64,000 nt of DNA, taken from positions 90,150,001 to 90,214,000 of the forward strand of contig NC_086097.1 of assembly GCF_963921235.1 (NCBI RefSeq). Reading direction: 5' to 3'. Position 1 is the first letter of the stretch; the number at the start of each line of letters is the position of its first letter. The translations under genes were made by a program, and so were the position numbers. The DNA comes from Mobula hypostoma. Its lineage: Eukaryota. This document shows, piece by piece, positions 3,898 through 63,269 of this stretch. The notes beneath the pieces are model-generated. The model was not told the origin of the DNA. It did not search any database and saw nothing but the letters and a program-made list of their open reading frames with translations.

Positions 3898-3899
3898 TA

Positions 3900-13082: not shown

Positions 13083-13455
13083 AACAACAGGAATTCTGCA
13101 GATGCTGGAAATTCAAGCAACACACATCAAAGTTGCTGGTGAACGCAGCAGGCCAGGCAGCATCTCTAGGAAGAGGTACAGTCGATGTTTCAGGTCGAGA
13201 CCCTTCGTCAGGACTAACTGAAGGAAGAGTTAGTAAGAGATTTGAAAGTGGGAGGGGGAGGGGGAGATCCAAAATGATAGGAGAAGACAGGAGGGGGAGG
13301 GATGGAGCCAAGAGGTGGACAGGTGATTGGCAAAGGGGGTATGAGAGGATCATGGGACAGAAGGTCCGGGGAGAAAGACAAGGGGGGGGAACTCAGAGGA
13401 TGGGCAAGGGGTATAGTCAGAGGGACAGAGGGAGAAAAAGGAGAGTGAAAGAAAG
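13083..13455 (-). mobile_element. PLE 3' terminal region; left arm of the inverted insertion 13083-17814
   Basis: Reverse complement of the PLE 3' end seen at 42500-42936; preceded by TSD GTGCTGTTATCACA (13069-13082). Confidence 0.9.
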
Positions 13456-13903
13456 GAGAGAATCCAGGATGGTTTGTTGCCTCCCGGGTGCCAGGGTCAA
13501 GGATGTCTCTGATCGATTGCATGACATTCTGAAGTGGGAGGGTGACCAGCCAGATGTCGTGGTGCACATTGGTACCAATGACAGAGCAAGGAAGAGTGAA
13601 GAGGTCCTGGACAGTGAGTATAGAGAACTTGGTAGGAAGTTGAAAAGCAGGACCTCAAGGGTGGTAATCTCAGGATTGCTACCTGTGCTAGGTGCCAGTG
13701 AGGGTAGGAATAGGATGCTCTGGAGGAGGAACAAGTGGCTGAGGAGCTGGTGTAGGGGGCAGGGTTTCAGATTTCAGGATCATTGGGACCTCTTCTGGGG
13801 CAGGTGGGACCTGTACAAGAGAGACGGGTTACACTTGAACCACAGGGGGACCAATATCCTTTCAGGGAGGTTTGTTAGTGTTATTGGGGAGGCTTTAAAC
13901 TAG
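13456..13903 (+). pseudogene. CR1 ORF1 C-terminal SGNH esterase domain, 5'-truncated
   Basis: CCLPGARVKDV...DVVVHIGTND...VVISGLLP...DGLHLN, the SGNH/GDSL esterase motifs of CR1 ORF1. Confidence 0.85.
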
Positions 13904-13905
13904 AT

Positions 13906-16833
13906 TTGCAGGGGGATGGGAACCAGAGTGCCAGAGCTGACAGTGTGGCTGGGGTGAAAATAAATGATGTTGAAAGTTTAAGCAAATCCGCTGATAGAAA
14001 GGTTGTGAGTGGTGGTAAAAATCTTCTGAGGTTTATATATTTCAATGCTAGGAGTATTGCGGGGAAGGCGGATGAGTTGAGGGCGTGGATTGACACGTGG
14101 AATTATGATGTTGTAGCAATTAGTGAAACTTGGCTACAGGAGGGGCAGGACTGGCAGCTTAATTTACCAGGGTTCCGATGTTTCAGATGTGATCGAGGCA
14201 GAGGAATGAAAGGTGGGGGAGTAGCATTGCTTGTTAGGGAAAATATTACAGCAGTGCTCAGGCAGGACAGATTAGAGGGCTTGTCTACTGAGTCCTTATG
14301 GGTGGAGCTGAGAAACAGGAAAGGTATGGCCACATTAGTGGGATTGTAGTACAGACCACCCAATAGTCAACGAGACTTGGAAGAGCAAATATGCAGAGAG
14401 ATAGCAGGCAACTGCAGGAAACATAAAGTTGTGGTGGTAGGGGATTTTAATTTTCCATACATTGATTGGGACTCCCATACTGTTAGGGGTCTAGATGGTT
14501 TAGAGTTTGTAAAATGTGTTCAGGAAAGTTTTCTAAATCAATATATAGAGGGACCAACTAGAGGGGATGCAATATTGGATCTCCTGTTAGGTAACAAATT
14601 AGGGCAAGTGACAGAAGCCTGTGTAGGGGAGCACTTTGGTTCCAGTGATCATAACACCATTAGTTTCAATTTGATCATGGACAAGGATAGATCTGGTCCT
14701 AGGGTTGAGGTTCTGAACTGGAAGAAGGCCAAATTTGAAGAAATGAGAAAGGATCTAAAAAGCGTGGATTGGGACAGGTTGTTCTCTGGCAAAGATCTGA
14801 TTGGTAGGTGGGAAGCCTTCAAAGGGGAAATTTTGAGAGTGCAGAGTTTGTATGTTCCTGTCAGGATTAAAGGCAAATTGAATAGCAATAAGGAACCTTG
14901 GTTCTCAAGGGATATTGCAACTCTGATAAAGAAGAAGAGGGAGTTGTATGAAATGTATAGGAAACAGGGGATAAATCAGGTGCTTGAAGAGTATAAGAAG
15001 TGCAAGAAAATACTTAAGAAAGAAATCAGGAGGGCTAAAAGAAGACATGAGGTTGCCTTGGCAGTCAAAGCGAAAGATAATCCAAAGAGCTTTTACAAGT
15101 ATATTAAGAGCAAAAGGATTGTAAGGGATAAAATTGGTCCTCTTGAAGATCACAGTGGTCGGCTTTGTGCGGAACCAAAGGAAATGGGGGAGATCTTAAA
15201 TAGGTTTTTTGCGTCTGTATTTACTAAGGAAGCTGGCATGAAATCTATGGAATTGAGGGAGTCAAGTAGTGAGACCATGGAAACTGTACAGATTGAAAAG
15301 GAGGAGGTGCTTGCTGTCTTGAGGAAAATTAAAGTGGATAAATCCCCGGGACCTGACAGAGTGTTCCCTCGGACCTTGAAGGAGACTAGTGTTGAAATTG
15401 CGGGGGCCCTGGCAGAAATATTTAAAATGTCGCTGTCTACGGGTGAAGTGCCGGAGGATTGGAGAGTGGCTCATGTTGTTCCGTTGTTTAAAAAAGGATC
15501 GAAAAGTAATCCGGGAAATTATAGGCCAGTGAGTTTAACGTCAGTAGTAGGTAAGTTATTGGAGGGAGTACTAAGAGACAGAATCTACAAGCATTTGGAT
15601 AGACAGGGGCTTATTAGGGAGAGTCAACATGACTTTGTGCGTGGTAGGTCATGTTTGACCAATCTGTTGGAGTTTTTCGAGGAGGTTACCAGGAAAGTGG
15701 ATGAAGGGAAGGCAGTGGATATTGTCTACATGGACTTCAGTAAGGCCTTTGACAAGGTCCCGCATGGGAGGTTAGTTAGGAAAATTCAGTCGCTAGGTAT
15801 ACATGGAGAGGTGGTAAATTGGATTAGACATTGGCTCAATGGAAGAAGCCAGAGAGTGGTGGTAGAGAATTGCTTCTCTGAGTGGAGGCCTGTGACTAGT
15901 GGTGTGCCACAGGGATCAGTGCTGGGTCCATTGTTATTTGTCATCTATATCAATGATCTGGATGATAATGTGGTAAATTGGATCAGCAAGTTTACTGATG
16001 ATACAAAGATTGGAGGTGTAGTAGACAGTGAGGAAGGTTTTCAGCGCCTGCAGAGGGACTTGGACCAGCTGGAAAAATGGGCTGAAAAATGGCAGATGGA
16101 GTTTAATACTGACAAGTGTGAGGTATTGCACGTTGGAAGGACAAACCAACGTAGAACATACAGGGTTAATGGTAAGGCACTGAGGAGTGCAGTGGAACAA
16201 AGGGATCTGGGAATACAGATACAAAATTCCCTAAAAGTGGCGTCACAGGTAGATAGGGTCGTAAAGAGAGCTTTTGGTACATTGGCCTTTATTAATCGAA
16301 GTATTGAGTATAAGAGCTGGAATGTTATGATGAGGTTGTATAAGGCATTGGTGAGGCCGAATCTGGAGTATTGTGTTCAGTTTTGGTCACCAAATTACAG
16401 GAAGGATATAAATAAGGTTGAAAGAGTGCAGAGAAGGTTTACAAGAATGTTGCCGGGACTTGAGAAACTCAGTTACAGAGAAAGGTTGAATAGTTTAGGA
16501 CTTTATTCCCTGGAGCGTAGAAGAATGAGGGGAGATTTGATAGAGGTATATAAAATTGTGATGGGTATAGATAGAGTGAATGCAAGCAGGCTTTTTCCAC
16601 TGAGCCAAGGGGAGAAAAAAACCAGAGGACATGGGTTAAGGGTGAGGGGGGAAAAGTTTAAAGGGAACATTAGTGGGGGCTTCTTCACACAGAGAGTGGT
16701 GGGAGTATGGAATGAGCTGCCAGACGAGGTGGTAAATGCGGGTTCTTTTTTAACATTTAAGAATAAATTGGACAGATACATGGATGGGAGGTGTATGGAG
16801 GGATATGGTCCGTGTGCAGGTCAGTGGGACTAG
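13906..16833 (+). pseudogene. CR1 ORF2 (APE endonuclease plus RT), near-intact with one in-frame stop
   Basis: YFNARS, AISETW, GDFN, SSDHN, KSPGPD, YRPVSLTS, DFSKAFDKV, GVPQGSVLGP, FTDD; ORFs 13906-14349 and 14377-16833 are in one frame separated by TAG at 14347-14349. Confidence 0.95.
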
Positions 16834-16915
16834 GCAGAAAATGGTTCGGCACAGCCAAGAAGGGCCAAAAGGCCTGTTTCTGTGCTGTAGTTTCTGTGGT
16901 TCTATGGTTCTATGG

Positions 16916-17110
16916 TGTGTATAAAAATAAATAATGGATGGGGTACGAGGGGGAGGTGGAGCATTAGCGGAAGTTAGAGAAGTCGATGTTCATGCCATCA
17001 GGTTGGAGGCTACCCAAATGGAATATAAGGTGTTGTTCCTCCAACCTGAGTGTGGCTTCATCTTTACAGTAGAGGAGGCCATGGATAGATACAGTAGAGG
17101 AGGCCGTGGA
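16916..17110 (-). mobile_element. Remainder of the PLE left arm (end of GIY-YIG ORF)
   Basis: Reverse complement of ...DEATLRLEEQHLIFHLGSLQPDGMNIDFSNFR; continues 13083-13455. Confidence 0.85.
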
Positions 17111-17814
17111 CACTTCACCTGTGAGTCGGCTGGGGTGATATACTGCGTCCGGTGCTCCCGATGTGGCCTTTTATATATTGGCGAGACCCGACGCAGACTG
17201 GGAGATCGTTTTGATGAACACCTACGCTCTGTCCACCAGAGAAAGCAGGATCTCCCGGTGGCCACACATTTTAATTCCATATCCCATTCCCATTCTGACA
17301 TGTCTATCCACGGCCTCCTCTACTGTAAAGATGAAGCCACACTCAGGTTGGAGGAACAACACCTTATATTCTGTCTGGGTAGCCTCCAACCTGATGGCAT
17401 GAACATCGACTTCTCTAACTTCCGCTAATGCCCCACCCCTCCGTACCCCATCCGTTATTTATTTTCATACATACATTCTTTCTTTCACTCTCCTTTTTCT
17501 CCCTCTGTCCCTCTGACTATACCTCTTGCCCATCCTCTGGGTTCCCCCCCCCCTTGTCTTTCTCCCCGGACCTCCTGTCCCATGATCCTCTCATATCCCC
17601 TTTGCCAATCACCTGACCACCTCTTGGCTCCATCCCTCCCCCTCCTGTCTTCTCCTATCATTTTGGATCTCCCCCTCCCCCTCCCACTTTCAAATCTCTT
17701 ACTAACTCTTCCTTCAGTTAGTCCTGACGAAGGGTCTCGACCTGAAACATCGACTATACCTCTTCCTAGAGATGCTGCCTGGCCTGCTGCGTTCACCAGC
17801 AACTTTGATGTGTG
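17111..17814 (+). mobile_element. PLE right arm (GIY-YIG domain and 3' region)
   Basis: HFTCESAGVIYCVRCSRCGLLYIGETRRRLGDRF; followed by TSD GTGCTGTTATCACA (17815-17828). Confidence 0.9.
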
Positions 17815-18430
17815 GTGCTGTTATCACATCTTTGATAACTGACTCTAGCATTTTCCCCACCACCGATGTCAGGCTAACCGGTCTATAATTCCTCGGTTTC
17901 TCTCTCCCTCCTTTTTTAAAAAGTGAGGTTACATTAGCCACCCTCCAATCCTCAGGAACTAGTCCAGAATCTAAAGAGTTTTGAAAAATTATCACTAATG
18001 CATCCACTATTTCTTGGGCTACTTCCTTAAGCCCTCTGGGATGCAGACCATCTGGCCCTGGGGATTTATCTGCCTTTAATCCCTTCAATTTACCTAACAC
18101 CACTTCCCTACTAACATGTATTTCCCTCAGTTCCTCCATCTCACTGGACCCTCTGTCCCCTACTATTTCTGGAAGATTATTTATGTCCTCCTTAGTGAAG
18201 ACAGAACCAAAGTAGTTATTCAATTGGTCTGCCATGTCCTTGCTCCCCATAATTAATTCACCTGTTTCTGTCTGTAGGGGCCTACATTTGTCTTAACCAA
18301 TCTTTTTCTTTTCACATATCTATAAAAGCTTTTACAGTCAGTTTTTATGTTCCCTGCCAGTTTTTTCTCATAATCTTTTTTCCCCTTCCTAATTAAGCCC
18401 TTCGTACTCCTCTGCTGGACTCTGAATTTC
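17815..18430 (-). mobile_element. CR1 LINE 5' half of the copy at 11731-13082
   Basis: KSPGPDGLHPR...NYRPVSLTSVVGKMLESVIKDVITA joins ITAHLEGGEIIGQSQHGF across the insertion. Confidence 0.95.
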
Positions 18431-19209: not shown

Positions 19210-21446
19210 AGAGGGCAACACACATGAACTGCTGGAGAAACTCAGCAGGTCAGGCAGCATCCATGGAAAAGAGTGAACAGTCAATGTTTCAGGCCGAGGC
19301 CCTTCATCAGGACTGGAAAGGAAGGGGAGAAGTCAGAATAAGAAGGTGAGGGGAGGGGAGGAAGAAGTACAAGGTGGCAGGTGATAGGTGAAACTGGGAG
19401 TGTGGGGGGGTGAAGTAAAGAGCTGGAAAGTTGATTGGTGAAAGAGATAAAGGGCTGGAGAAGGGGAATCTGATAGAGAGGACAGAAGGCCATGGAAGAA
19501 GGGGAAGGTGGAGGAGAATGAAAAGCCTGATCCTGATAACAGATACAGCAGAGAAAAAAGAATTCAGAGAAGAGGATGGCATTTTTACAAGTGACAGTGT
19601 GGGAAGAGCTATAGTCCAGATAGCTGTGAGAGTCAGTGGGTTTATAAAAGATATCAGTAGATAGACTGTCTCCAGGGGTGGAGACAGAGAGATCAAGAAA
19701 TGAGAGAGAGGTGTCAGAAGTGGACCAAGTAAATTTGAGGGTAGGGTGGAAGTTGGAGGCAAAGTTGATAAAATTGATGAGCTCAGAATGGGTGCAGGAA
19801 GCAACACTAATTCAGTTGTCAATGTAGCATAGGAAGAGTTGGGAGCAATGCTGGTGTAGGCTTAAAACATGGACTGTTCCACATAGCTGATGAAAAGACA
19901 GGTATAGCTGGGACTCATGTGATGTGCCCATAATTTCATCTTTAGTTTGAAGGAAGTGGGAGGAGCTGAAGGAGAAATTATTGATGGTGAAGACCAGTTC
20001 CACCAGATGGAGGAGAGTGGTGGTATAGGGGAACTGGTTGGGTTTGTTGCCCAGAAGAGAGCAGAGAGCTTTATGGGCCTCCTGATAGGGGATGGAGGTG
20101 TTAAGGGACTGGAAGTCCATGGTGAAAATAATTCAGTGGGGCAGGAACAAGCAGAAACTATGGGTCTACCTGGACAGTCAGGTGTATGGATCTTGGGTAG
20201 CAGGTAGAAATGGGAGGTGTGGTGTAAGGGAACTATGAGGTCGGTGGCCGTGGATGGGAGATCCCAGAGTTGATGAGGTCAGTGACGTTGTGGGGGACGA
20301 TGGCCTGGTTCTCCTTAGTAGGACCCTGTTCGAGGGGTTAGTTAGAGGAGGAGGTATCTGACAGTTGTCATTGGTCCTCAGCAAGGTAGAGATCAATCCA
20401 CCAGCCTACTACAGCACTCTTCTTATCTGCAGGTTTGATGGTGAGGTTGGGATTAGTGCAGACAGAGTGGAGAGCAGTGCATTCAGAAGAAGTGAGGTTA
20501 GAATTGGACAGAGAAGTGTTGATGTCCCGTCGGCAGCTAGCGATGAAAAGGTCCAGATCAGGCAGAAGACCAGGGCGGAATGTCCAGGAAGAGGAAGAGG
20601 GTTGATGACAGGAGAAGGGGTCATCGGTGCGGGGTGGAGGGTCCTTACCAAAGAAGTAGACACAGAAATGGAGATGATGGAAGAAGAGCTCGGTGTCACG
20701 GCAGGTGCGGAACTCATTGAGGTGCGGGCACCAGGGGACAATGATGAGGCCCTTGCTGAGGACAGAACATTCTGCCTCAGAGAGAGGCAGGTTGGAGGGA
20801 ATTGTGAAGATCTGGCACAGATGACAGCTGGGATGATAGGACTGGTAGTGTCTCAGGAGAGAGGAGAGTTGGGGTGTTCAGGGAAGGTAGGGAGGGAGGG
20901 AGGAAGTTGAAGGCTCCGTGGACCCAAGAGTTAACAGTGGGGCTTGAGAGAAACAAGGTTGCAGAGTGGTGGTGGGGGAAGGAGAGACTGGGGTTCCAGC
21001 GGCAGCACGCAAAGTCTCAGCCTGGACGTGCTGTTGGTCAAATTCCAGGCAGGAGTCGGAGTTTGAGGTTGTGTAATTAGCAGTTTCAAGGTGTCCGCGT
21101 TTGTTGAAATCGGCACCGGCAGTGGTGGAATCCCAGTTCTGAATCCGCTCAGGATCATTGGAACCGGTGTTGGTGATGTTGGAAATGTCCAGCACTGTGG
21201 GGCCAGGGACAGATTCAAAGAGGTTTGTAACCTGGGGGCGTGTGATAGTATCAATGTCCAAGTGGCGGCAGCAGGGATGCTGGTCTGGGGCATCCAGGGC
21301 CGCCAGTGTTAAAGGCGGTGGGTTCTGTGGTCTGCATACGGGTGTCGGCTGCTCACTCTTTTCCATAGATGCTACCGACCTGCTGAGTTCTTCCGGGCTT
21401 TTGTGTGTGTTGCTTGGATTTCCAGCATCCGTAGATTTTCCCCTGT
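19210..21446 (-). mobile_element. Older PLE: minus-strand 3' region, degenerate RT and N-terminal part, plus a short inverted 3' end at about 21350-21446
   Basis: Minus frames TSIPYQE...NNFSFSSSHFLQTK, LFLCYIDN; GIY-YIG region deleted; TSD TTG(T/C)GTTCTCTCT at 19197-19209 and 21447-21459. Confidence 0.8.
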
Positions 21447-32048: not shown

Positions 32049-33489
32049 TAACAAACCTGATTCTAATATGGGTCTCTATTGTGGACTGAGAGTGGGACAG
32101 GGGCAGGTAGAGGGGAATCATGGTGGGGAAAAGGGAAGGGGGAGAGAAGGGAGCAGGAAGCACCAGAGAAACACTCTGTAATGATCCATGAACCAATTGT
32201 TTGGAATCAAATTATCTTTCCTGCTGTCTCAGGGCTGGGTGTATCTGCACTCGTGCCAACCCACGCCACTGGCATTCCTACTCTACCACCTGTCCCAATC
32301 CTTCCTACCGCACTCCACCCTCACCATTCCCAATATCCTTTGCTCCACCAGATTTACATACTCGATCTCCGCTCCACTTTGACAAATGCAGTATTGTGCA
32401 AAGGTCTTGTGCACCCTGGCTATATGAGGGTGCCTAAGACTTTTGCACAGTACTGTACATTTATTATCAAAGTATATATACTGTATACAATACTGTCTTC
32501 CTACCATTTCACCATCGTATTACAGAAATTACTGGAGATAATCAACAGGTCAGGCAGCATCTGCAGAGAGAAGTGCAGATTTAGTGTTTCATGTGATGAA
32601 ACAGTAACTTTGTTTCTGTCTCCATTTAATCATGCAGACTCTGCTGTCCAAATCAGGTCAAGTTGCCCTCCTGAGTGTGGAATTGTCCGCCTAAGTAGAT
32701 ATTAGGCAGGTGAATGATGGATTTATGGTCTCATAACCAGATCAGCTAAGAAGTCTAACAACACTCAGCAAATTAGTAAAGAGATTAGATTTCAGCTTTA
32801 TTGTGTCAAAACAGCCAAACATACAGTGAAATGCATAGTTTGTGTCATTTCCGATGTGCAGGGAGCAACCAGATAGTATCGTCATGCTTCCAGTGCCAAC
32901 ATAGTATGCCCACAACTTACTATCCCCAACCTGTATGTCTTTTTGGAATGTGGGAAGAAAGCAGAGCACCCAGAGATACCCACGTGGTCTCAGGGAGAAC
33001 ATACTAACTCCTTACAGATAGCAGTGGGAGTTAAACACCAATTTTCTGATCGTTGCTGTTGTAAAGCATTACACTAACTGCTACCCTACCATGCTGCCCA
33101 CACTCTGCTGTGCCATTACTGTTATCATCCAACATTATTCCTTATTGCACATGAAAATTTATAATTTTTAAAATTATTTGTGAAGTACAGTAACCTTACT
33201 TGTACTACCTAATGTACAAATAGCAAATTTATGTTTTGCATAATAGGGAATAGAGAGAAAGATAACCCAGATTTGGTTAGAATGTCTTCTCTACTCTTGG
33301 TCTCATTGATATTGCCTCAACCCACTTTCCCATATTTGATGTTGAATTGGAGGAAAGGCAAGTCCTCTTTCCGTTCTGTGAAAATATTGGTGACAGCTCT
33401 AATATACTAAAAATAACTCAATAATCCTTTCTCTTCATTGCTCTGATTCCAAGGCGTCTGTTCTCATGATGAGACGTTCCACTGGAGGA

Positions 33490-40629: not shown

Positions 40630-41163
40630 TACCCTTTGTAAATTGAGGGGCTGCTTCGTCAAGCACCTGCGTTCCATCCACCACAAGCGGGTCTTCCCAG
40701 TGGCCAAGCATTTTAATTCTGATTCCCATTCCCATTCTGACATGTTGATCCATGGCCTTCTCTTATGACAAGATGACAGGGTGGAGGACCAACACCTTAT
40801 ATTCTGTCTGGGTAGTCTCCAACCTGATGGCATAAGTATCAATTTCTCTTTCTGGTAAACAAATTCCACCCCCCCCCCTTCTCTATTCCCCACTCTGACT
40901 TTTTAACTCCTCTCACCTGCCTAATATTTCTCCCTGGGTCCCCTCCTCCTTCTATGGCCCACCCTCCTCTCCTATCAGATTCCTTCTTCTCCAGCCCTTG
41001 CCTTCTCCCACCCACAAGGCTTCACCTATCACCTTCCAGCTAGCCTCCTCCTCCTCCCCACACATTTTTATTCTGACATTTTTCCTCTTCCTGTTAGTCC
41101 TGACAAAGGGTCTTGGCCTGAAACGCCAACTATCTATTCATTTCCATAGATGCTGCCTGACTT
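40630..41163 (+). mobile_element. Older PLE 3' fragment (continues at 42937-42980)
   Basis: Decayed GIY-YIG end and 3' region; host of the younger PLE. Confidence 0.75.
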
Positions 41164-42936
41164 CCATCCCCCATCAGGAAGGTCTCAAAGCTCTACGCTT
41201 CTTTTTGGATTCCAGACCTAATCAGTTCCCCTCTACCACCACTCTGCTCCGTCTAGCAGAATTAGTCCTTACTCTTAATAATTTCTCCTTTTGCTCCTCC
41301 CATTTCCTCCAAACTAAAGGTGTAGCTATGGGCACCCGTATGGGTCCTAGCTATGCCTGCCTTTTTGTTGGGTTTGTGGAACAATCTATGTTCCGTGCCT
41401 ATTCTGGTATCTGTCCCCCACTTTTCCTTCGCTACATCGACGACTGCATTGGCGCTGCTTCCTGCACGCATGCAGAACTCGTTAACTTTATTAACTTTGC
41501 CTCCAACTTTCACCCTGCCCCCAAGTTTACCTGGTCCATTTCTGACACCTCCCTCCCCTTTCTAGATCTTTCTGTCTCTGTCTCTGGAGACAGCTTATCC
41601 ACTGATGTCTACTATAAGCCTACTGACTCTCACAACTATCTGGACTATTCCTCTTCTCACCCTGTCTCTTGCAAAAACGCCATCCTCTTCTCGCAATTCC
41701 TCCGTCTCCGCCGCATCTGCTCTCAGGATGAGGCTTTTCATTCTAGGACGAGGGAGATGTCTTCATTTTTTAAAGAAAGGGGCTTCCCTTCCTCCACTAT
41801 CAACTCTGCTCTTAAACGCATCTCCCCCATTTCACGTACATCTGCTCTCACTCCATCCTCCCACCACCCCACTAGGAATAGAGTTCCCCTGGTCCTCACC
41901 TACCACCCCACCAGCCTCCGGGTCCAACATATTATTCTCCGTAACTTCCGCCACCTCCAACGGGATCCCACCACTAAGCATATCTTTCCCTCCCCGCCTC
42001 TCTCTGCATTCCGCAGGGATCGCTCCCTACACAACTCCCTTGTCCATTCGTCCCCCCCATCCCTCCCCACTGATCTCCCTCCTGGCACTTATCCGTGTAA
42101 GCGGAACAAGTGCTACACATGCCCTTACACTTCCTCCCTTACCACCATTCAGGGCCCCAAACAGTCCTTCCAGGTGAGGCATCACTTCACCTGTGAGTCG
42201 ACTGGGGTGATATACTGCGTCCGGTGCTCCCGATGTGGCCTTTTATATATTGGTGAGACCCGACGCAGACTGGGAGACCGCTTTGCTGAACATCTACGCT
42301 CTGTCCGCCAGAGAAAGCAGGATCTCCCAGTGGCCACACATTTTAATTCCACATCCCATTCCCATTCTGACATGTCTATCCACGGCCTCCTCTACTGTAA
42401 AGATGAAGCCACACTCAGGTTGGAGGAACAACACCTTATATTCCGTCTGGGTAGCCTCCAACCTGATGGCATGAACATTGACTTCTCTAACTTCCGCTAG
42501 GCCCCACCTCCCCCTCGTACCCCATCGGTTACTCTTTTTAATGCACACATTCTTTCTCTCACTCTCCTTTTTCTCCCTCTGTCCCTCTGAATATACCTCT
42601 TGCCCATCCTCTGGGTCACCCCCCCCCCCCCGTCTTTCGTCTTTCTTCCCGGACCTCCTGTCCCATGATCCTCTCGTATCCCCTTCTGCCTATCACCTGT
42701 CTAGCTCTCGGCTCCATCCCTCCCCCTCCTGTCTTCTCCTATCATTTTGCATCTCCCCCTCCCCCTCCAGCTTTCAAATCCCTTACTCACTCTTCCTTCA
42801 GTTAGTCCTGACGAAGGGTCTCGGCCTGAAACGTCGACTGCGCCTCTTCCTATAGATGCTGCCTGGCCTGCTGCGTTCACCAGCAACTTTGATGTATATT
42901 GCTTGAATTTCCAGCATCTGCAGAATTCCTGTTGTT
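41164..42936 (+). mobile_element. Young Neptune-type PLE, 5'-truncated, with open RT to GIY-YIG frame (41164-42500)
   Basis: SIPHQEG, QTKGVAMGTRMGPSYACLF, LRYIDD, PFLDL, YYKPTD, linker CKRNKCYTC, VIYCVRCSRCGLLYIGET; TSD TGCTGCCTGACTT at 41151-41163 and 42937-42949. Confidence 0.95.
42804..42839 (+). ncRNA. Minimal type I hammerhead ribozyme motif in the PLE terminal region
   Basis: AGTC-CTGACGA-AGGGTCTCGGCCT-GAAACGTC-GACT: CUGANGA core, short stem II, GAAA, GUC cleavage triplet, stem I AGTC/GACT. Confidence 0.8.
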
Positions 42937-44257
42937 TGCTGCCTGACTTGCTGGGTTCCTCAGCATTTTGTGTGCATTGCTCCCTTATTTCACTCGCAGA
43001 TAATAATCTCCAATTTCAATTCATAGAACTGATGGAAGGAGCTGTGTTCTCCCAGGTTAAGGCTAAGCTCAGGATCTCAGGTCATTGCATATATCCTTGG
43101 TAACGACTGGGAATCAGTTACTGCCGGGCGCAAGTTTAATGCAGAGTCTAAACGTTCCCTGTTCATGTTTTTCAGGTTCATATAGAGAGTGATGAGTTGA
43201 TTACAGGGCATAAGGGAGTGTAAAAAAAAGATATCCATTTATAAAGTAAACTTTGTGTCTCAAGATATCCAAAGTTCTTAAAGCTGTACATTATAAAATT
43301 CGAAGGGAGTTCACAAAATTAAAATTAATACAACAAAAACAAAAGCTTTGATGAGTAACAACTTTTACACAGAAAATAATATGGGTGTTATAGTGCCCAT
43401 TTCAAAAATGGAATCATTACATTTATTTAATGCCCCTGCTCACAAAAATGAAAGAGTGCATTACATCTTACATAATAGCCTCTCAAAATATTTCACAGCT
43501 CATTACCGACAACAGTGTATTTTCAAAGTTCAAAATTCAAAACAACTTTGTCATTAAGGCACACATATGTTATCATGTACTATCGTGAGATTCATTGTCT
43601 TGCAGGCATTTACAGAGAAAAGAAAGAAATACAATAGAATTCTGTAAAACAAAACTGTATATAAAAAGACCAATGTTCAAAAAGAAGACAAACTATGCAA
43701 GTAAAAATAATACTGGGAGCATGAGTTGTACAGTCTTTGAAAGCAAGTCTGTATGTCAAAGCGTTAATTCAATGTATTGTTTGCCAGAACCAATAGTTTC
43801 ACTTTAAGGACTCTTTGTCTCATTATCTCATGTTCTTGTTATTTATTGCCATTTGTTTATATTTGCATTTGTGCAGTTCTTTGACTTCTGCACTCTGGTT
43901 GATCTTTCATTGATTCTGTTATAGTTACTATTCTATAGATTTGCTGAATATATACACAGGAAAATGGTGACATATACAGTATCTACATTGATAATAAAAT
44001 TTACTTTGAACTTGAAGAGTAGCAACTGCTTCTGAATCTGATGGTGTAGGACCTAAGGCTTTGTTGCCCCCTGCCTGATGGTAATAATGAGAAGAGGGCA
44101 TGGTCTGGTTGGCGTTGGTCTCTGTTGATGGATGCTGCTTTCTTGTGGCAATGCTCCTTGTAAATTTACTCAGTGGTAGGGAGACCTTTGAATGTGTAAT
44201 GAACACATCAACCAATATGTACACAGCAAGGTCCAAAAAATAATATGATAACAGCCA

Positions 44258-44778
44258 ACAACAGGAATTCTGCAGATGCTGTAAAGATGAAGCCACACTC
44301 AGGTTGGAGGAACAACACCTTATATTCCGTCTGGGTAGCCTCCAACCTGATGGCATGAACATCGACTTCTCTAACTTCCGCTAAGGCCCCACCTCCCCCT
44401 CGTACCCCATCTGTTACTCATTTTTATGCACACATTCTTTCTCTCACTCTCCTTTTTCTCCCTCTGTCCCTCTGAATATACCTCTTGCCCATCCTCTGGG
44501 TCCCCCCCCCCCTTGTCTTTCTTCCCGGACCTCCTGTCCCATGATCCTCTCGTATCCCCTTTTGCCTATCACCTGTCCAGCTCTTGGCTCTATCCCTCCC
44601 CCTCCTGTCTTCTCCTATCATTTTGGATCTCCCCCTCCCTCTCCAACTTTCAAATCCCTTACTCACTCTTCCTTCAGTTAGTCCTGACGAAAGGTCTCCG
44701 CCTGAAACGTCAACTGCACCTCTTCCTACAGATGCTGCCTGGCCTGCTGCATTCACCAGCAACTTTGATGTGTGTTGC
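44258..44778 (+). mobile_element. PLE fragment with a short inverted 3' terminus at its left end
   Basis: ACAACAGGAATTCTGCAGATGCTG (antisense 3' end) joined to the sense GIY-YIG end; TSD ATGATAACAGCCA at 44245-44257 and 44779-44791. Confidence 0.9.
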
Positions 44779-45009
44779 ATGATAACAGCCAGATAATTTG
44801 TCTTTTGTGGACATTCGGCATAAATATCAGGCAGTGTCTGGAATTAAATTTAAGACCAATGAAATACTGGACGGACATTGTCAAGAGTGATTATTCACTG
44901 CAAGAGACATTTGAAGGTGCCAAACTAGTCCAGAATCTATATCAGAAAAGTGAATTGATTAAGCCATCAATATTACTGAGCTTACAGATGCAAGTTTAGA
45001 AGCACAGAG

Positions 45010-46680: not shown

Positions 46681-47024
46681 CCCATTAGACCTCCTCCCTT
46701 TCCCTACCTATGTTGTTGGTACCAATATGTAACAAGACTTCAGGCGACTCGCCCTCCCCCTTTAGGATGCCATGGATCCTATCTAAGACATCCTTAACCT
46801 GGATCCTGGGAGGAAACATACCATCCAAGAGTCTTTCACATCCACAAAATCTCTTGTCTGCTCCCCTAACTGATGAATCCTTAATCACCACCGCACTCCT
46901 CATCATCCTCCTTCCCTCTGAGCCACAGACCCAGACTCAGATCCAGAGACCTGGTTGCTGCAGCTTTCCCCTTGTTGGTCCCCCCCAACCCCCAACATTA
47001 TCCGAAGCGGTGTACTGGTTATTG

Positions 47025-47251
47025 CAGCAACACACACAAAAAATGCTGGTGAACACAGCAGGCCAGGCTGCATCTATAGGAAGAGGTACAGTCGACGTTT
47101 CGGGCTGGGACCCTTCGTCAGGACTCTGATGAAGGGTCCTGACCCGAAACGTCGACTGTACCTCTTCCTATAGATGCTGCCTGGCCTGCTGTGTTCACCA
47201 GCATTTTTTGTGTGTGTTGCTTGAATTTCCAGCATCTGCAGATTTCCTCGA
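47025..47251. mobile_element. Palindromic mini-PLE (two inverted 3' ends, two hammerhead cores)
   Basis: About 95-bp inverted arms centred near 47125; TSD GTACTGGTTATTG at 47012-47024 and 47252-47264. Confidence 0.9.
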
Positions 47252-47264
47252 GTACTGGTTATTG

Positions 47265-50430: not shown

Positions 50431-53047
50431 AATGACACTAGGTTGGCATGAATTCATCGGTCTGGACGACCTATATACATTGGTTTGATCAAAACAATAA
50501 TGTCATCCTCCATCCTGAAGACTGTCTAGAAAGATACAGAAACAAGAACAGTGGCAGCAACTAAGTTGGAAGTTAAATTCACCTAATACAAATGATCTAG
50601 ATTGACGTGGAGCTACAATGTATATCACCCACACTTTTAGTGCACCCTAATTGACCCATCTCTGCCACCAATCCACTCTCACATACCCTGCTGCTTGACT
50701 TGCTTTACATAGGGTGCACCAGAACCTCACGTATTATAGTTATATCTGATTTTGGAAAAACAGAAGAACTAATGACTTGTACGAAGAAATGGAAGGGTTG
50801 GTTAGTGAACTGGCATAAAACTTGAAGGTTGGAGGTGCTGTGGATAGTGTAGAATGCTTTCGTAGGTTACAACAGGACATGGGCAAGATGCAGAGCTGGG
50901 CAGAGAAGTGGCAGATGGAGTTCAGTCCAGAAAAGTGTGAAAGATTAATCTTGAAGGTGGAGTACAAGGTGAATGGCAGGATTCTTAGCAGCACAGAGGA
51001 TCTTGGGGCTGAAGTGCATAAATCCCTCAAAGTGACTAAACAATTTGTTAGCATGGTTAAGAAGGCATATGGTGTGTTCACCTTCATTATTCACGGCACT
51101 GAGTTTAAGGGCTGCCAGGTAATATTGCAACTCTATAAAACTCTGGTTAGATCACAGTAATGAGATACAGATCTCATTGTAAAGTTCAGGGGAGATGTCA
51201 GAGGTATTTTACACAGTGGTAGAGGTTGATACAATAGGGACATTTCAGAAATGATCATTTATTTTATTTATTTAGTGATAAAGCATGGAGTAAGCACTTC
51301 TGGCCCTCCAAGCGGCATCGCTCCAGCTCCCCGATATAACACTATCTTAATCACAGGACAATTTACAATGACCAGTCAGCCCACCTGGTATGCCTTTGGA
51401 CCGTGGGAGGACGTACAGAATCCTTTCACAGCATGGCAGAATTGCACTTCAAACTCCGAGGCCCCGAGCAGTAATTGTGTCACACTAACTACTATGCTAC
51501 CATAGCACCCGACAACAAATCTATCTATGGAAAATGAAGGATTATGGGCAATATACGAGGGAAGGGCTAGGTTGATCCTGGAATAGGTTAGCTTGCACCG
51601 TGAGTCAAAGGGCCTTACTGTGCCATACTGTTCTATGTAAATCACTCCTCTTAGTTGTCTGGCTGAAACCTGACAATGTGGAGCTATGTAACTGATAGAG
51701 TTACGCTGAATCACGGCCAATAGCACTTCAACCCCTGCTCCAATACAGGGAAACAATAGACCATTTGACAGCCAGCTGAATGAGCAACATTTCAGCTGTG
51801 TAAACATAGCTCCAAGCCCAAGGGGCAGAGGGCGGACTTCACACTCCCTTGGGAATGGATGCCTCCTCACAGGATCTGGGAAGTGCAGCAATCAGATTAA
51901 CCCCCAAAGGAACAGAAATTTATTCTTAAACTTTAAGACAGGACCAATTTATTAAGTTACTTGCAATAGAGTGATTCCTCTACAGGTCTCCCGTTGAAAT
52001 GGATTCAGAATGACTTAAAACTTACTTCTTTTGTTCAATGCCATTTTTCTTAAAATGTTTATGAAAAGTGTGATTTGGAAGTGAAGAACTGAAAAAAGAC
52101 ATTTTTTCTTTCCCTCATACATGGGAGGTGACCGTGACAGGAAGGTTGGCATTTATTTCCAATCACAACTGCACTCATGGAGGCAATGGTGAACAGCAAC
52201 CATACTGCTGGTGGGACAATGTTGAGGGAGAGTCACACTGTTGGAAGGGCAATACTGAGGGATTGCTGCAATGCCAGAGCAAGTGCCACAACATCAGAGG
52301 GACAGCTGTACGGAGGGAGCACCAGGCTATCTGAGGGCCAGTGCAGAGAGGTGCTGATTGGTAAAGAGTTCCAGCATTTTGACCAGATGCTGATGAAGGA
52401 TTGGCATTTCCAAGTTTCGAGTGTGCACAGCTTCAAAAGGAATGTGTAAGTGATGACGTTTCCATGTTACGTTTTGCCCTCCAGAAGGTAAAAGTTAAGG
52501 GTTTGGGAGGCAGTGTTGAGAAGATGAGATGTCACAGTGCACACTCTAAATGGCACATACCGCATTTGGGGTAAACTGGAGGAGAGGCTGATACATGGTT
52601 TTGATTTCTACAACTGCACTTGCTGAATTGTCCTGAATGGTTGCAAAAATTCTGAGTATCGTTAAGGCTGCAATTATTAAGTAAGAGATTCAACATTCAA
52701 GATTGTTCTATGTCATTTCCTGCACACAAGAAGAATGGAATAATTATTACTCCGAATCCGGTGCAGCAAAAAAAACCCCACAAAAGATAAAGAACACAAA
52801 GATAATAAAAAAAACACAATAAATATAATCACAACTGCTCTCAAGGTAGCTTATATACATACTGTAGATTGATCGTAGTCCATAAAAAGGAGACCATTGT
52901 ATCATATTTCTGACACATAGATGGCAATGGTCTTCAGAGAAGCAGGAAGTGAGTCACTTGCCACAAAATTCCCAGCCTCTGAGCTGCTGGTAGAGTCAAT
53001 ATATGTAAAGTTAAATCACCTAAAAGGACTGCGGAAGGGTTTGTCAA

Positions 53048-53315
53048 CACACATCAAAGTTGCTGGTGAACGCAGCAGGCCAGGCAGCATCTCTGGGAAG
53101 AGGTACAATCGACGTTTCGGGCCGAGACCCTTCATCAGGACGAACTGAAAGAAGAGCTAGTAAGAGAGCTAACTGAAAGCAGATTAGTCCTGACGAAGGG
53201 TCTCATCCCAAAACGTCGACTGTACCTCTTCCCAGAGATGCTCCCTGGCCTGCTGCGTTCACCAGCAACTTTGATGTGTGTTGCTTCAATTTCCAGCATC
53301 TGCAGAGTTCCTCGT
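53048..53315. mobile_element. Palindromic mini-PLE
   Basis: Inverted PLE 3' ends with filler at about 53166-53193; TSD GGAAGGGTTTGTCAA at 53033-53047 and 53316-53330. Confidence 0.9.
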
Positions 53316-53734
53316 GGAAGGGTTTGTCAAATGTGTTCAGGGAAGTTTCCTTAGTCAATATGCAGAGGTCTGAAAGAATGCAATATTGGATCTCCTCTTT
53401 GGGAATAAGGCAAGGGCAGGTGACAGACGTGCATGTAGGAGAACATTCTGGATCCAGTGATCATAATTCCATTTGTTTTAAGTTAATTATGAAGGATTGG
53501 ACTAGTCCTCAGCTTGAGATTCTAAAATGTAGAAAGGTCAATTTAGATGGCATCAGAAGGGATCTGGCAGGTGTAGATTAGGAAAGGCTGTTTCCCAGCT
53601 TGGTAAGTGGAGGGGTCTTTAAAAGTGAAATATTAAGTTTACAAAATCTGTATGTTCCTGTCAGAATAAAAGGCAGACTGGCACACTTGTGGAACCTTGA
53701 TTATCAAGGGATATTGAGGCCCAGGTAAAGAAAG

Positions 53735-56420: not shown

Positions 56421-59091
56421 GAAAGAGAAGTTATATACTGTATCAGGTGTAGACAGTTAGGATCGAATAAGTGATTGAGGAGTATAAGAATTGGAAGAGA
56501 ACACCTAAGAGATAAAGCAGGAGGGCCATAGGGTCATGAGGTTTCTCTGGAAGACAAGGCAAAAGAGAATCTCAAGGGGTTGTCTAGCTATATTAAAAGG
56601 TTAGCAAGGGACAAAATGAGTCTTCTTGAAAATCAGCATGGTTACCTATGCATGGAGCCAAAAGAGATGGTGATAACTTTAATGAATTTTTTGCATCTCT
56701 ATTTACTTGGGAGACACACAGAGACCATAGCAGTGAGGTAAAAGAGTAGAGCGGTCATGGACCATATCCAGATTACAGACGAGGTGATCTGACTGTCTTG
56801 AGGCGAATTAGGGTGGATAAATCCCCAACAGCAAACAAGGTGTCCCCTCAGACCTAATGGGAGACTAGTGCAGAAATTGGAGGGGTCCAGGCAAAAACAG
56901 TTAAAACATCCTGAGTTGAAGTGCTGGAGGACTGGAGAACAGCCAATGGTAAATTACTGGAAGGGTTTCTAAGGACCAGGCTTTTGGATAGGCAGGGCCT
57001 AATTAGGGATAGTTGACATGTTTTGTGCGTGGTAAGTCATGTCTAACCAATCTTACAGAGTTTTTTAGAGAGGTTACCAAGAAGGTTAATGAAGGAAAGG
57101 TGGTGAACATTGTCTATGTGGCCTTTAGCAAGCCTTTTGACAATGACAACATCCCACACGGGAAGCTGGCACAGAAGTTTAAATTGCTTGCCATTCACAA
57201 TGAAGCAGTCAATTGGATTCAATGTTGGCTTAGTCGGGGAAGCCAGAGAGTGGTAGTAAATGGTTGTCTCTCTGACTAAAGACACCTGTGACTGCTAGTG
57301 TGCTGCATCAGTCAGTGCAGGCTTCATTATTGTGTGATGATGTGTTTCTAGAAGGAAATGTTGTAAACAGGATTAGCAAATTTCAGGATGACACCAAGAT
57401 TGGTAAGCAGGGGATAGCACGGAAGGCTATCAAAACTTGCAGCATGATCTCGACCAACTTGGAAAATAGACTGAATAATGGCAGATGGAATTTAATGCAA
57501 AAAAGTGTGTTGCACTTTGAAAGGATAAACAAGGGTAAAAATTAAACTGTGAATGATGGTGCTTTGATGTGTGCTGTAGAACAAAGGGACCTGGGAACAC
57601 AGATCAATAATTCCGTGGAAGTGAAATCAAATGTAGGTAGTGTCATAAAGAGAGCTTTTGGTGCACTGGCCTTCATAAATCCCTGCACTGAACACAGGAT
57701 CTAGTATATTATGTTGTACACTACCTCACTTTTTTTTTCTTTTTTCACTCTCTTTTCGCACTATTTACTTAATTTTTCTATATAAGTGTTGATCAAGATT
57801 GAAATTGACAAGAACAAGAGCAGGAGAGCAGGTGTTCGGCCTGTGTTTGACTAGGCCCTCTCCCTCTCCCTCGCTGCTGCCAAAGGAAGGTGCAGAAGTC
57901 TTGGGTCTTGGGAAGGTTTCATTGGTGCAGCTTGTGGATTGGACTCATTCTTAGAGATTTCTGCGGTTCATATTACATGTTTTTCTGTTTTCTTATTACT
58001 CTTGTTGTTATTCTGCATGATTCTGATCTGGACGCGTTGACGCAGCCAAATTGAACTGAACTGGACTAAACTGAACACTCCTAGACCATTTCAAGGACCC
58101 TGCAGGTCTGTGACTCTGCAACCTAATGTGTTATTCACTCGTCTTTTGCTGATGGCACAATTTGTTCTTTTTTTCGCACGTTGGGTGTTTTCTTTGAACA
58201 GATTCCATGGTGTTTCTTTGTTTGGTAGCTGCCCGCAGGAAGACAAATGCATACATATTTGGATAATAAATATACTTTGAATCTTTGTATATTTCTTATT
58301 ATAATGTAAAGTTTATGTATTTATTTATTTTAGAGATATAGCATGGAATAGGCTATTCCGGCCCTTCAAGCCACACTCTCTACCAATCCTGATTTAACCC
58401 TAGCCTAATCATGGGACAACTTAAAATAACCGATTAACAACTAACCAGGACTATGGGAGAAAACTGGAGCACCCAGAAAAAACCTACGCAGTCCACGTGG
58501 AGGACGTAAAAACCCCTTACTGTGGACACTGGATTGAGCTCTGACATAGTGTCCCACTAACCCCTATGTACCCTGGTGCCCGCATATTGCAATGTACCGC
58601 TGCCACAAAACTACAAATTTCACAACATACACTACACCAGCAATATTGTATAAGACATTGGTGAGGTCACATTTGGATTACTGTTTGCAGCTGTGGTCAC
58701 TTAACTACCGGAAAGATGTTAATAACCTTGAAAAAGTGCAGAGAAGATTTACAAGGATGTTGCCAGGGCTCGAGGTCTTGAATTATCAGGAAAGATTAAA
58801 TAGATTAGGACTTTATTCCTTGAAGTGCAAGAAAAGGAGGGGAGATCATATAGAGGTATAGAAAATTATGAGGATTACAGATACGGTGAATACATACAGG
58901 CTTCTTCCCCTCAGGTTGTTTGAGACTAAAACTAGAGGTCGCTGGTTTAGAGAAAAAGGTGAAATATCTAAGGGCCTCTGAGGGAAAACTTCATCATCAG
59001 ATGGTGGTGCAAGTGTGGAACGAACTGCCAGTGGAAATGAGAAATGTAGGTTCAGTTGTAATATCTAAGAAAAGTACAAGGATGAGAGGGG

Positions 59092-61244
59092 TACAGTCGA
59101 CGTTTCAGGCCAAGACCCTTCGTCAGGACTAACTGAAGGAAGAGTGAGTACGAGATTTGAAAGTTGGAGGGGGAGATCCAAAATGATGGGAGAAGACAAG
59201 AGGGGGAGGGATGGAGCCAAGAGCTGGACAGGTGATTGGCAAAACGGATATGAGAGGATCATGGGACAGGAGGTCCAGGAAGAAAGACAAGGTGGGGGGG
59301 CACCCAGAGGATGGGCAAGGGGTATATTCAGAGGGACAGAGAAAGAAAAAGGAGAGTGAGAGAAAGAATGTCTGTATAAAAATAAATAACAGATGGGGTA
59401 CGAGGGGGAGGTGGGGCATTAGCGGAAGTTAGAGAAGTCGGTGTTCATGCCATCAGGTTGGAGGCTACCCAGACGGAATATAAGGTGTTGTTCCTCCAAC
59501 TTGAGTGTGGCTTCATCTTTACAGTAGAGGAGACCGTGGATAGACATGTCAGAATGGGAATGGGATGTGGAATTAAAATGTGTGGCCACTGGGAGATCCT
59601 GCTTTCTCTGGCGGACAGAGCGTAGGTGTTCAGCAAAGCGGTCTCCCAGTCTGCGTCAGGTCTCGCCAATATATAAAAGGCCACATCGGGAGCACCGGAC
59701 ACAGTATATCACCCCAGCCGACTCATAGGTGAAGTGTCGCCTCACCTGGAAGGACTGTTTGGGGCCCTGAATGGTGGTAAGGGAGGAAATGTAAGGGCAT
59801 GTGTAGCACTTGTTCCGCTTACGTGGATAAGTGCCAGGAGGGAGATCAGTGGGGAGGGATGGGGGGGACGAATGGACAAGGGAGTTGTGTAGGGAGCGAT
59901 CCCTGTGGAAAGCAGAGGGGGGGGAGGGAAAGATGTGCTTAGTGGTGGGATCCCGTTGGAGGTGGCGGAAGTTACGGAGAATAATATGTTGGACCCGGAG
60001 GCTGGTGGGGTGGTAGGTGAGGACCAGGGGAACCCTATTCTTAGTGGGGTGGCGGGAGGATGGAGTGAGAGCAGATGTACATGAAATGGGGGAGATGCGT
60101 TTAAGAGCAGAGTTGATAGTGGAGGAAGGGAAGCCCCTTTCTTTAAAAAAGGAGGACATCTCCCTCGTCCTAAAATGAAAAGCCTCATCCTGAGAGCAGA
60201 TGCGGCGGAGATGGAGGAATTGCGAGAAAGGGATGGCGTTTTTGCAAGAGACAGGGTGAAAAGAGGAATTGTCCAGATAGCTGTGAGAGTCAGTAGGCTT
60301 ATAGTAGACATCAGTGGATAAGCTGTCTCCAGAGACAGAGACAGAAAGATCTAGAAAGGGGAGGGAGGTGTCGGAAATGGACCAGGTAAACTTGAGGGCA
60401 GGGTGGAAGTTGGAGGCAAAGTTAATAAAGTCAACGAGCTCAGCATGTGTGCAGGAAGCAGCGCCAATGCAGTCGTCGATGTAGCGAAGGAAAAGTAGCG
60501 GACAGATACCAGAATAGGCACGGAACATAGATTGTTCCACAAAGCCAACAAAAAGGCAGGCATAGCTAGGACCCATACGGGTGCCCATAGCTACACCTTT
60601 AGTTTGGAGGAAGTGGGAGGAGCCAAAGGAGAAATTATTAAGAGTAGGGACTAATTCCGCTAGACGGAGCAGAGTGGTGGTAGAGGGGAACTGATTAGGT
60701 CTGGAATCCAAAAAGAACCGGAGAGCTTTGAGACCTTCCTAGTGGGGGATGGAAGCATAAAGGGACTGGACATCCATGGTGAAAATAAAGCGGTGGGGGC
60801 CAGGGAACTTAAAATCATCGAAAAGTTTAAAAGCGTGAGAAGTGTCACGAATATAGGTAGGAAGGGATTGAACAAGGGGGGATAAAACCGTGTCGAGGTA
60901 TGCAGAAACGAGTTCGGTGGGGCAGGAGCAAGCTGAGACAATAGGTCGGCCAGGACAGGGAGGTTTGTGGATCTTGGGTAGGAGGTAGAAACGGGAAGTG
61001 CAAGGTGTGGGAACTATAAGGTTGGTAGCAGTGGATGGGAGATCCCCTGAGCGGATAAAGTCGGTGATGGTGTGGGAGACAATGGCCTGGTTCTCCTTAG
61101 TGGGGTCACGATCGAGGGTTAAATAAGAGGAGGTATCCGCGAGTTGTCGCTGTGCCTCAGCAAGGTAGAGGTCAGTACGCCAGACTACAACAGCACCCCC
61201 CTTATCGGCGGGTTTAATAATAAGGTTAGGATTAGTGCGGAGGA
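59092..61244 (-). mobile_element. Neptune-type PLE, left arm (RT, GIY-YIG, 3' region)
   Basis: ORF 59656-60711 with AMGTRMGP, LRYIDD, GLLYIGET; upstream RT motifs to about 61240; TSD AGGATGAGAGGGG at 59079-59091. Confidence 0.92.
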
Positions 61245-61259
61245 GGTTTAGTAATAAGG

Positions 61260-62847
61260 ACCCGTATGGGTCCTAGCTATGCCTGCCTTTTTGTTGGCTT
61301 TGTGGAACAATCTATGTTCCGTGCCTCTTCTGGTATCTGTCCCCCACTTTTCCTTCGCTACATCGACGACTGCATTGGCGCTGCTTCCTGCACGCATGCA
61401 GAGCTCGTTGACTTTATTAACTTTGCCTCCAACTTTCACCCTGCCCTCAAGTTTACCTGGTCCACTTCTGACACCTTCCTCCCCCTTCTAGATCTTTCTG
61501 TCTCTGTCTCTGGAGACAGCTTATCCACTGATGTCTACTATAAGCCTACTGACTCTCACAGCTATCTGGACTATTCCTCTTCTCACCTTGTCTCTTGCAA
61601 AAACGCCATCCCCTTCTCGCAATTCCTCCGTCTCCGCTGCATCTGCTCTCAGGATGAGGCTTTCCATTTTAGGACGAGGGCGATGTCCTCCTTTTTTAAA
61701 GAAAGGGGCTTCCCTTCCTCCACTATCAACTCTGCTCTTAAACGCATCTCCCCCATTTCACGCACATCTGCTCTCACTCCATCCTCCCGCCACCCCACTA
61801 GGAATAGGGTTCCCCTGGTCCTCACTTACCACCCCACCAGCCTCCGGGTCCAACATATTATTCTCCGTAACTTGCGCCACCTCCAACGGGATCCCACCAC
61901 TAAGCACATCTTTCCCTCCCCCCCCCCGCTTTCCGCAGGGATCGCTCCCTACGCGACTCCCTTGTCCATTCGTCCCCCCCATCCCTCCCCACTGATCTCC
62001 CTCCTGGCACTTATCCGTGTAAGCAGAACAAGTGCTACACATGCCCTTACACTTCCTCCCTTACCACCATTCAGGGCCCCAAACAGTCCTTCCAGGTGAG
62101 GCGACACTTCACCTGTGAGTCGGCTGGGGTGATACACTGCGTCCGGTGCTCCCGATGTGGCCTTTTATATATTGGCGAGACCCGACGCAGACTGGGAGAC
62201 CGCTTTGCTGAACATCTACGCTCTGTCCGCCAGAGAAAGCAGGATCTCCCAGTGGCCACACATTTTAATTCCACATCCCATTCCCATTCTGACATGTCTA
62301 TCCATGGCCCCTTCTACTGTAAAGATGAATCCACACTCAGGTTGGAGGAGCAACACCTTATATTCCGTCTGGGTAGCCTCCAACCTGATGGCAGGAACAT
62401 CGACTTCTCTAACTTCTGCTAAGGCCCCACCTCCTCCTCATACCCCATCTGTTATTTATTTTTATACAGACATTCTTTCTCTCACTCTCCCTCCGGCCCT
62501 CTGACTATACCCCTTGCCCATCCTCTGGGTTTTTCCCCCCCTCCCCCTTTTCCTTCTCCCTGGGCCTCCTGTCCCATGATCCTCATATATCCCCTTTGCC
62601 AATCAACTGTCCAGCTCCTGGCTCCATCCCTCCCCCTCCTGTCTTCTCTTATCATTTTGGATCTCCCCCTCCCCCTCCCACTTTCAAATCTCTTACTAGC
62701 TCTTCTTTCAGTTAGTCCTGACGAGGGGTCTCGGCCCGAAATGTCGACTGTACCTCTTCTTAGAGATGCTGCCTGGCCTGCTGCGTTCACCAGCAACTTT
62801 GATGTGTGTTGTTTGAATTTCCAGCATCTGCAGAATTCCTGTTGTTT
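61260..62847 (+). mobile_element. Neptune-type PLE, right arm
   Basis: ORFs 61266-62099 (LRYIDD) and 62096-62422 (GIY-YIG); complete 3' end; TSD AGGATGAGAGGGG at 62848-62860. Confidence 0.92.
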
Positions 62848-63269
62848 AGGATGAGAGGGGAATGGAGGGCTGTGATCCGGGTGCAGGTAGATGGTACCAG
62901 AGAGAATGCCTAGTTGGCATGGACTAGATGGGCCAAAAGGTCTGTTTCTGTGCTGAGGTACTTTATGACTCTATCCTGGTCATACATGTCCTTGGGTATA
63001 TGACAAGAAACTCTATTTTTAAATTGACTTTATCTTTCATTATTCCCTTCAAGTGTAGATTAATCCTGTTCTACGGAATGTTTTTTCAATTATTTCTCTA
63101 CCAATGGAGTTAAGAGTCATTGGCCTCTAACTGCCCTTCTTGAATAAAGGCATCATCTTTGCTGTCCTGAAGTCAGCTGGCACACTTTTGTGGCTGGAGA
63201 ACATATGAAAAACTTAGTCAGGGATTTTTGTCCCCTGCATCCAGTATTAAATTTACTATTGTGACAGGT

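Follow-up and report, generated by a model that had tools for sequence, protein, structure and literature searches.

How Penelope-like elements (PLEs) form tandem or inverted insertions is described as undefined in the relevant passages of PMC8557442. The layout itself is known: in Pen2a_Av of Adineta vaga (PMC3846280) and in the scheme of PMC8557442, as given in the published passages, an inverted, 5′-truncated copy lies head to head within one short target site duplication (TSD), with a tail of 30–40 bp at one end. Parts of PMC11167929 describe a PLE protein, predicted to be a dimer, that in vitro cuts both strands, extends them and starts at two adjacent RNA sites; PLE transcripts are described there as multi-copy tandems. 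In L1 twin priming and synchronous double insertions, as presented in sections of a preprint (bioRxiv 10.1101/2024.08.27.596794), both target ends prime, the second by spurious complementarity, the cDNAs are joined at the inversion point, and two RNAs are possible in one outcome. Here, we analysed a stretch of 64,000 nucleotides of Mobula hypostoma (NC_086097.1, positions 90,150,001 to 90,214,000; hereafter the window), in which the PLE insertion at 59079–62860 combines this known architecture with a real and mechanistically informative mismatch in the outer part of its two arms. The explanation that we prefer, with a probability of roughly 0.6, is that integration involved the copying of two different templates.

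The two arms stand head to head with both 3′ ends outward, and the 13-bp sequence AGGATGAGAGGGG is repeated identically at the two ends of the insertion (Table 1). Thirteen is also the modal TSD length; five other insertions in the window have TSDs of 13–15 bp and one has 8 bp. The inverted homology, 59087–60598 against 61244–62757, comprises 1418 identical positions out of 1524 (93%) over an overlap of ~1.5 kb; arm homology proper begins at 61260, the computed match running from 61244. Because the left arm carries ~650 nt beyond the overlap (60599–61244), the insertion is not a plain palindrome. The element interrupts an older long interspersed nuclear element (LINE), which we take to be CR1-like, and both flanks are collinear with another copy of that LINE at 16336–16887. 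With the exact TSD, the arm identity and the collinear flanks, the description of the locus in the earlier note, an inverted PLE with ~1.5 kb of inverted homology in one 13-bp TSD, holds. Taken alone, the locus is a defunct transposon copy, and nothing points to a role for the host. At the joint, a short filler matches a source that lies 34 nt away in the left arm. Similar fillers were found at 17090–17108 (18/19 match) and 53168–53183 (13/16), both in matched pairs, so that three head-to-head joints carry 15–19 nt copied from 25–34 nt away in the left arm. This recurrent filler is an end-joining signature. Four further head-to-head insertions in the window have TSDs of 13–15 bp and a tail on one arm, the other arm ending at or near the equivalent of 62811.

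Since an inverted truncated copy with a one-sided tail has already been published (passages of PMC3846280 and PMC8557442), the head-to-head architecture is ordinary. The published passages on Pen2a_Av and on the scheme of PMC8557442 do not compare arm subfamilies; in the present insertion, the arms are unlike in the 3′ region and one of them ends off-register. For the rotifer PLE, junction palindromes were proposed to lead to self-priming on an antisense template (passages of PMC3846280), whereas the present joint is a direct templated filler. The likeness to PAc, a Poseidon element of Anolis (parts of PMC11167929), lies in two adjacent start sites by which the tail is defined (here at a distance of 36 nt), in the cleavage and extension of both strands and in a hammerhead, here a hammerhead-like motif, near the start sites. 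However, PAc starts without target homology, while the element studied here has a Neptune/Nematis linker and its left arm starts elsewhere with microhomology. An experiment with two RNAs does not figure in those parts of PMC11167929. According to the sections of the preprint cited above (bioRxiv 10.1101/2024.08.27.596794), L1 twin priming uses one RNA and mostly non-overlapping segments, in contrast to the 1.5 kb overlap at one site here, and the L1 events with two RNAs involve two sites and translocations, whereas the flanks here are not rearranged. Twin priming of the L1 type on a single RNA predicts shared subfamily alleles throughout the overlap, and these are not found in the 3′ region. 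Searches of an open-access library, main texts only, turned up no account of PLE arms of mixed subfamily or of a two-RNA PLE integration, and passages of a further preprint (bioRxiv 10.64898/2026.07.22.740005) offered nothing on the subject.

The mismatch was examined in an alignment of 11 arms or copies from seven insertions in the window. All columns in which any copy has a CpG were removed, as were columns 1948–1973 (a poly-C tract) and 2019–2022; the shared-allele test also removed columns with fewer than three other rows, and the parsimony swap test columns 1322–1335. Fisher tables built on hand-picked sites alongside the swap test were given no weight. In the 3′ region, 9 of the 28 non-CpG differences between the arms (388 columns) have both alleles present in other copies. 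Under a same-template null, which covers CpG and the masked poly-C tracts but no other mutation hot spots, the mean was 1.7 such sites and none of 20,000 simulations reached nine. The control pairs gave 1 of 13 (13k/17k), 0 of 2 (53k) and 0 of 1 (47k), the last two being short and weak. The tree placed the arms apart (bootstrap 91), and arm monophyly was rejected over 363 non-CpG columns of seven copies (approximately unbiased test p = 0.04; p-KH 0.055). Non-CpG divergence in the outer untranslated region (UTR) reached 22/226 (9.7%) between the arms, whereas the 13k/17k pair has 6/239 (2.5%; Fisher p = 0.0014). The mismatch in the outer part is therefore real. Contigs of four runs (two samples) were also compared with 61000–62950 at 85% likeness. 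Twenty-eight of the 46 substitutions found in the right arm only are among the 40 letter rows listed out of 171, most with at least 95% of the other letter. None of the 10 diagnostic UTR sites is among these 40 of 171 rows, which fits common alleles.

The earlier note had assigned the arms to different subfamilies, the left one with the 42k and 44k copies and the right one with the 35k and 53k copies. This is borne out for the outer part, with the qualification that the left arm, having only 4 of the 12 defining alleles, represents a sister lineage of 42k/44k and not a member. The grouping agrees with eight of the nine shared-allele sites, while 62423 points the opposite way. The motifs quoted in support were partly exact: ACTCACTCTTCCTTCAG occurs in 42k and 44k, AATCAACTG in 35k and CTAGCTCTTCTTTCAG in the left arm of 53k. 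However, 42k and 44k read TATCACCTG, and the AATCACCTG of the left arm is the 13k/17k form. The proposal of two different templates, likewise, is supported for the outer ~250 nt (62505–62737 and its mirror) and is unproven for the arms as a whole. The dimeric RNP or hammerhead-paired RNAs with which the earlier note found its reading compatible would be a conjectural addition.

The ends of the arms add a second irregularity. Among the rows listed, loose ends of the family contigs cluster at 62811 (4/4 runs) and 62847 (3/4 runs), and the 3′ end of the left arm falls ~57 nt short of the usual end without a tail (equivalent to 62811). The target and the element share 2 nt exactly at the left junction, and agree at four of the last five positions. 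Setting aside the 44k insertion, whose left arm consists of tail only, the sole mixed pair among the four head-to-head pairs is also the sole pair with a non-canonical arm end. A minimal hammerhead-like motif was recognised by eye in both arms and resembles the minimal, dimer-dependent PLE hammerheads described in portions of PMC4209133 in its Type I core, its palindromic positions 15.2–16.2 and its near lack of helix III. There, the dimers form between tandem copies, cleavage is weak and no link to integration is made. A search of Rfam gave no hammerhead match at E ≤ 5, no stable monomer fold was found, and minimum free energy folds were no better than those of shuffled sequences. Neither arm terminates at the predicted cut site, which was placed by eye from the motif. 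As the left arm runs 7–9 nt past it, a hammerhead-cleaved template for this arm is ruled out.

A number of results weigh against the two-template reading and against its extension to the whole arms. The differences between the arms in the open reading frame (ORF) look neutral (10 synonymous and 21 nonsynonymous; dN/dS 0.66–0.88, p 0.19–0.43); the left arm compared with the 42k ORF indicates purifying selection (dN/dS 0.34–0.45, p 0.004–0.025). A T at 61669/60173, carried by only 1–4% of the family depth, is common to the two arms, as is a G at 62469/59372 that is present in none of five other copies; a rough estimate puts the chance coincidences of such shared alleles at ~0.2. With an outgroup, the ORF sites are split, three uniting the right arm with 42k, three uniting both arms and two uniting the left arm with 42k. 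The reading further rests on one locus, the microhomology at the left junction is just 2 nt, and among the 32 contig pieces listed none spans 61000–62950. Because the ORF differences are neutral and one rare allele is common to both arms, a difference over the whole arms is unproven. A shared inner template is in turn counted against by the differences between the arms at 61400 and 62423, which are common family polymorphisms, and at 61436 and 62215; at each of these positions it is the right arm that goes with 42k, opposite to what the UTR shows. In the ORF, the three long copies lie at nearly equal distances (2.8–3.0% non-CpG), and at 2.8% the inner non-CpG divergence between the arms comes near the value for the matched 13k/17k pair (2.6%). 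Private changes of both arms cluster at the end of the ORF (62305–62400 and its mirror), with nine non-CpG differences in 119 columns versus one in 13k/17k. Wholesale homogenisation of the inner ORF from arm to arm is disfavoured, a rare allele being found at only 1 of the 40 non-CpG sites where both arms differ from 42k.

These inner results bear on how the mismatch arose. It may be that both arms came from one template and that ectopic gene conversion later overwrote the outer ~250–300 nt of one of them. The neutral ORF divergence, the inner divergence close to that of a matched pair, the position of both shared rare or unique alleles inside the 62505 boundary and the great abundance of the family would all agree with this. 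However, the arms also differ in the inner part at the four sites named above, and the non-canonical left end, placed exactly at a TSD of modal length, would stay a separate coincidence, so that we regard conversion as rather unlikely. As an addition to the two-template reading, the templates may have differed over the whole arms, and a crossover of one inverted arm with the other at 62423–62505 may later have flipped the central ~3 kb, which would make the arms reciprocal recombinants. The right arm goes with 42k/44k upstream of this zone and the left arm downstream of it, the two arms show no difference over this zone, the unique allele included, and a swap of the arms there shortens the tree by two parsimony steps, the largest gain among 21 pairs (permutation p 0.052–0.056). 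Against the flip, the supporting ingroup sites are two, the zone was chosen post hoc, and 42k/44k may itself be a recombinant lineage. Since the outgroup cuts the gain to one step (p 0.38–0.40), the flip is a hint, not a finding, and we hold it only tentatively. The shared alleles would be explained equally well if, inside 62423–62505, the reverse transcriptase (RT) had left the second RNA for the first.

Other ways of obtaining unlike arms fare worse. Private mutation after insertion, which the earlier note had named as a possible refutation, accounts for most of the ORF differences but is rejected for the 3′ region by the simulations and is given next to no weight overall. An artefact of assembly or polishing, through which alleles from different copies were blended within one arm, is conceivable as inverted PLE structures are said to trouble assemblies (a passage of PMC8557442) and the spanning contig is missing from those listed. 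It is nevertheless unlikely, indeed very improbable, given the exact TSD, the collinear flanks, the templated filler and the many private alleles; the right arm retains 24 alleles present at ≤5% in the family (run X1), one of them common to the left arm, and was thus not polished to the consensus. Two successive insertions, with the second arm landing exactly at the 5′ junction of the first, would account for both the different subfamilies and the odd left end, and the window does contain a PLE inserted into a PLE (at 41161). This is hard to credit, as there is no second TSD, the joint has the same kind of filler as the matched pairs, the one-tail rule is kept and CpG decay is similar in the two arms (9 versus 7 sites). 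The modal TSD length, together with the last three of these observations, favours one integration.

Under the two-template reading, integration would begin with a 13-nt staggered cut of the target by the endonuclease. One target 3′ end may then prime at the canonical tail site on an RNA of the 35k/53k type, and the other would prime off-register, through the 2-nt microhomology, on an RNA of the lineage sister to 42k/44k. Both cDNAs presumably stop early and are joined by repair synthesis. The inner 1.1 kb could reflect two templates, one template after an RT switch, or a later flip between the arms. With this single case, we infer that a second, opportunistically primed template would explain in one step why the same pair is both mixed and off-register. 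That the templates were separate RNAs is quite possible, although short of an even chance; that they were unlike units of one tandem transcript is unlikely. The latter source, which the earlier note had not considered, is suggested by the description of PLE transcripts as multi-copy tandems and by the nested copy at 41161. In a more general form, two RTs on two separate RNAs, one per target strand, would routinely make PLE head-to-head insertions in the manner of a co-packaged RNA pair, the matched pairs being two transcripts of one active source. We consider this generalisation doubtful.

The arms code for the C-terminal portion of an ORF with RT and GIY-YIG, including DKG, CCHH and a CX4CxxC linker. 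In the left arm, this frame is preserved apart from two in-frame stops; the right arm has one frameshift near 61925 and retains the linker and the GIY-YIG/CCHH endonuclease. The RT is of the PLE type, with PADKGG and RT motifs; the 2466 candidates included 103 homologues at E ≤ 1e-3, the majority bearing PF00078, and the best named homologue is from a cartilaginous fish (68%). The direct Pfam RT match is weak and below the cut-off (E = 0.039; none at 1e-3). The GIY-YIG domain shows its motif with CCHH and with cysteines between GIY and YIG, and matches the PF01541-bearing P0008 at 47% over 168 aa; its direct Pfam match also lies below the cut-off (E = 0.014). According to passages of PMC8557442, a CX2-5CxxC linker upstream of GIY-YIG defines Neptune/Nematis and is missing in Penelope/Poseidon. 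The element is thus an endonuclease-bearing (EN+) PLE with a Neptune/Nematis-type linker and, by this motif, a candidate member of those clades. By the same definition, an assignment to Penelope/Poseidon is ruled out.

The window holds further copies. The 47k and 53k miniature insertions are ~225–270 nt long. A young copy at 41161–42938, with a 13-bp TSD, landed in the 3′ end of an older PLE, both pointing the same way (stretch 40630–42970), which yields a partial tandem of unlike subfamilies. An older PLE copy on the minus strand (19215–20462) has internal deletions and ~78% identity to the young family. Hairpin repeats at 3829–3899 and 32385–32461 are probably a miniature inverted-repeat element and gave sub-threshold Rfam microRNA matches. 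At 62331, 62382 and 62416, many contigs depart from the reference along a single consensus, a sign of related, abundant subfamilies whose ORF end or 3′ UTR is different. Collections of metagenome, genome and viral contigs gave no usable further copies; a 20-nt match in one viral locus was treated as chance. Word shares of 0.67–0.69 and 0.50–0.55 in two organisms were not used as ortholog evidence.

Table 1. Features of the insertion at 59079–62860, its flanks and the other head-to-head insertions (window coordinates).
Feature	Position	Strand	Basis or remark
Host LINE, left part (3′ region)	58646..59078	+	72% to 16336–16763
TSD, left copy	59079..59091	+	exact direct repeat
Non-canonical left junction	59090..59093	.	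final two TSD bases (GG) also fit the element
Left arm, 5′-truncated PLE, ~2.15 kb, 3′ end outward, without tail	59092..61244	-	homology and ORF reading
Minimal hammerhead-like motif, left arm	59095..59130	-	by eye; core intact, palindromic ACGT in helix III
Left-arm 3′ haplotype, sister to 42k/44k	59107..59327	-	4/12 diagnostic 42k/44k alleles
Templated filler at head-to-head joint	61245..61259	+	14/15 match to 61211–61225
Right arm, 5′-truncated PLE, ~1.59 kb, with 3′ UTR and tail	61260..62847	+	homology and ORF reading
Stretch identical in both arms, with unique G (62469/59372)	62441..62479	+	in candidate switch/crossover zone 62423–62505
Right-arm 3′ haplotype, common to 35k and 53k copies	62505..62737	+	0/12 42k/44k alleles
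Minimal hammerhead-like motif, right arm	62714..62749	+	by eye; two substitutions
36-nt tail, right arm only	62812..62847	+	family loose ends in contigs of four runs
TSD, right copy	62848..62860	+	exact direct repeat
Host LINE, right part, continues left part	62861..62955	+	76% to 16782–16887
13k/17k pair	13083–17815 (stretch 13069–17828)		13–14 bp TSD; left arm split by nested ~3.5 kb LINE (13456–16914); arms match (3.3%)
44k insertion	44260–44778 (stretch 44245–44791)		13-bp TSD; inverted left arm ~24 nt, little beyond tail
47k pair	47026–47250 (stretch 47012–47264)		miniature; distinct subfamily, its alleles in both arms
53k pair	53045–53314 (stretch 53033–53330)		miniature two-armed insertion

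The mismatched arms are a clue to the insertion mode of a poorly understood class of elements. Mixed arms should occur at different rates under self-priming on one RNA, twin priming on a tandem RNA and the two-RNA models. This rate can be counted where a genome carries copies in great number and of distinct subfamilies, and the present locus and its matched neighbours show that the test works. If two separate RNAs are routinely used, mixed pairs would expose a two-RNA mechanism, and PLE subfamilies would recombine at the site of insertion.

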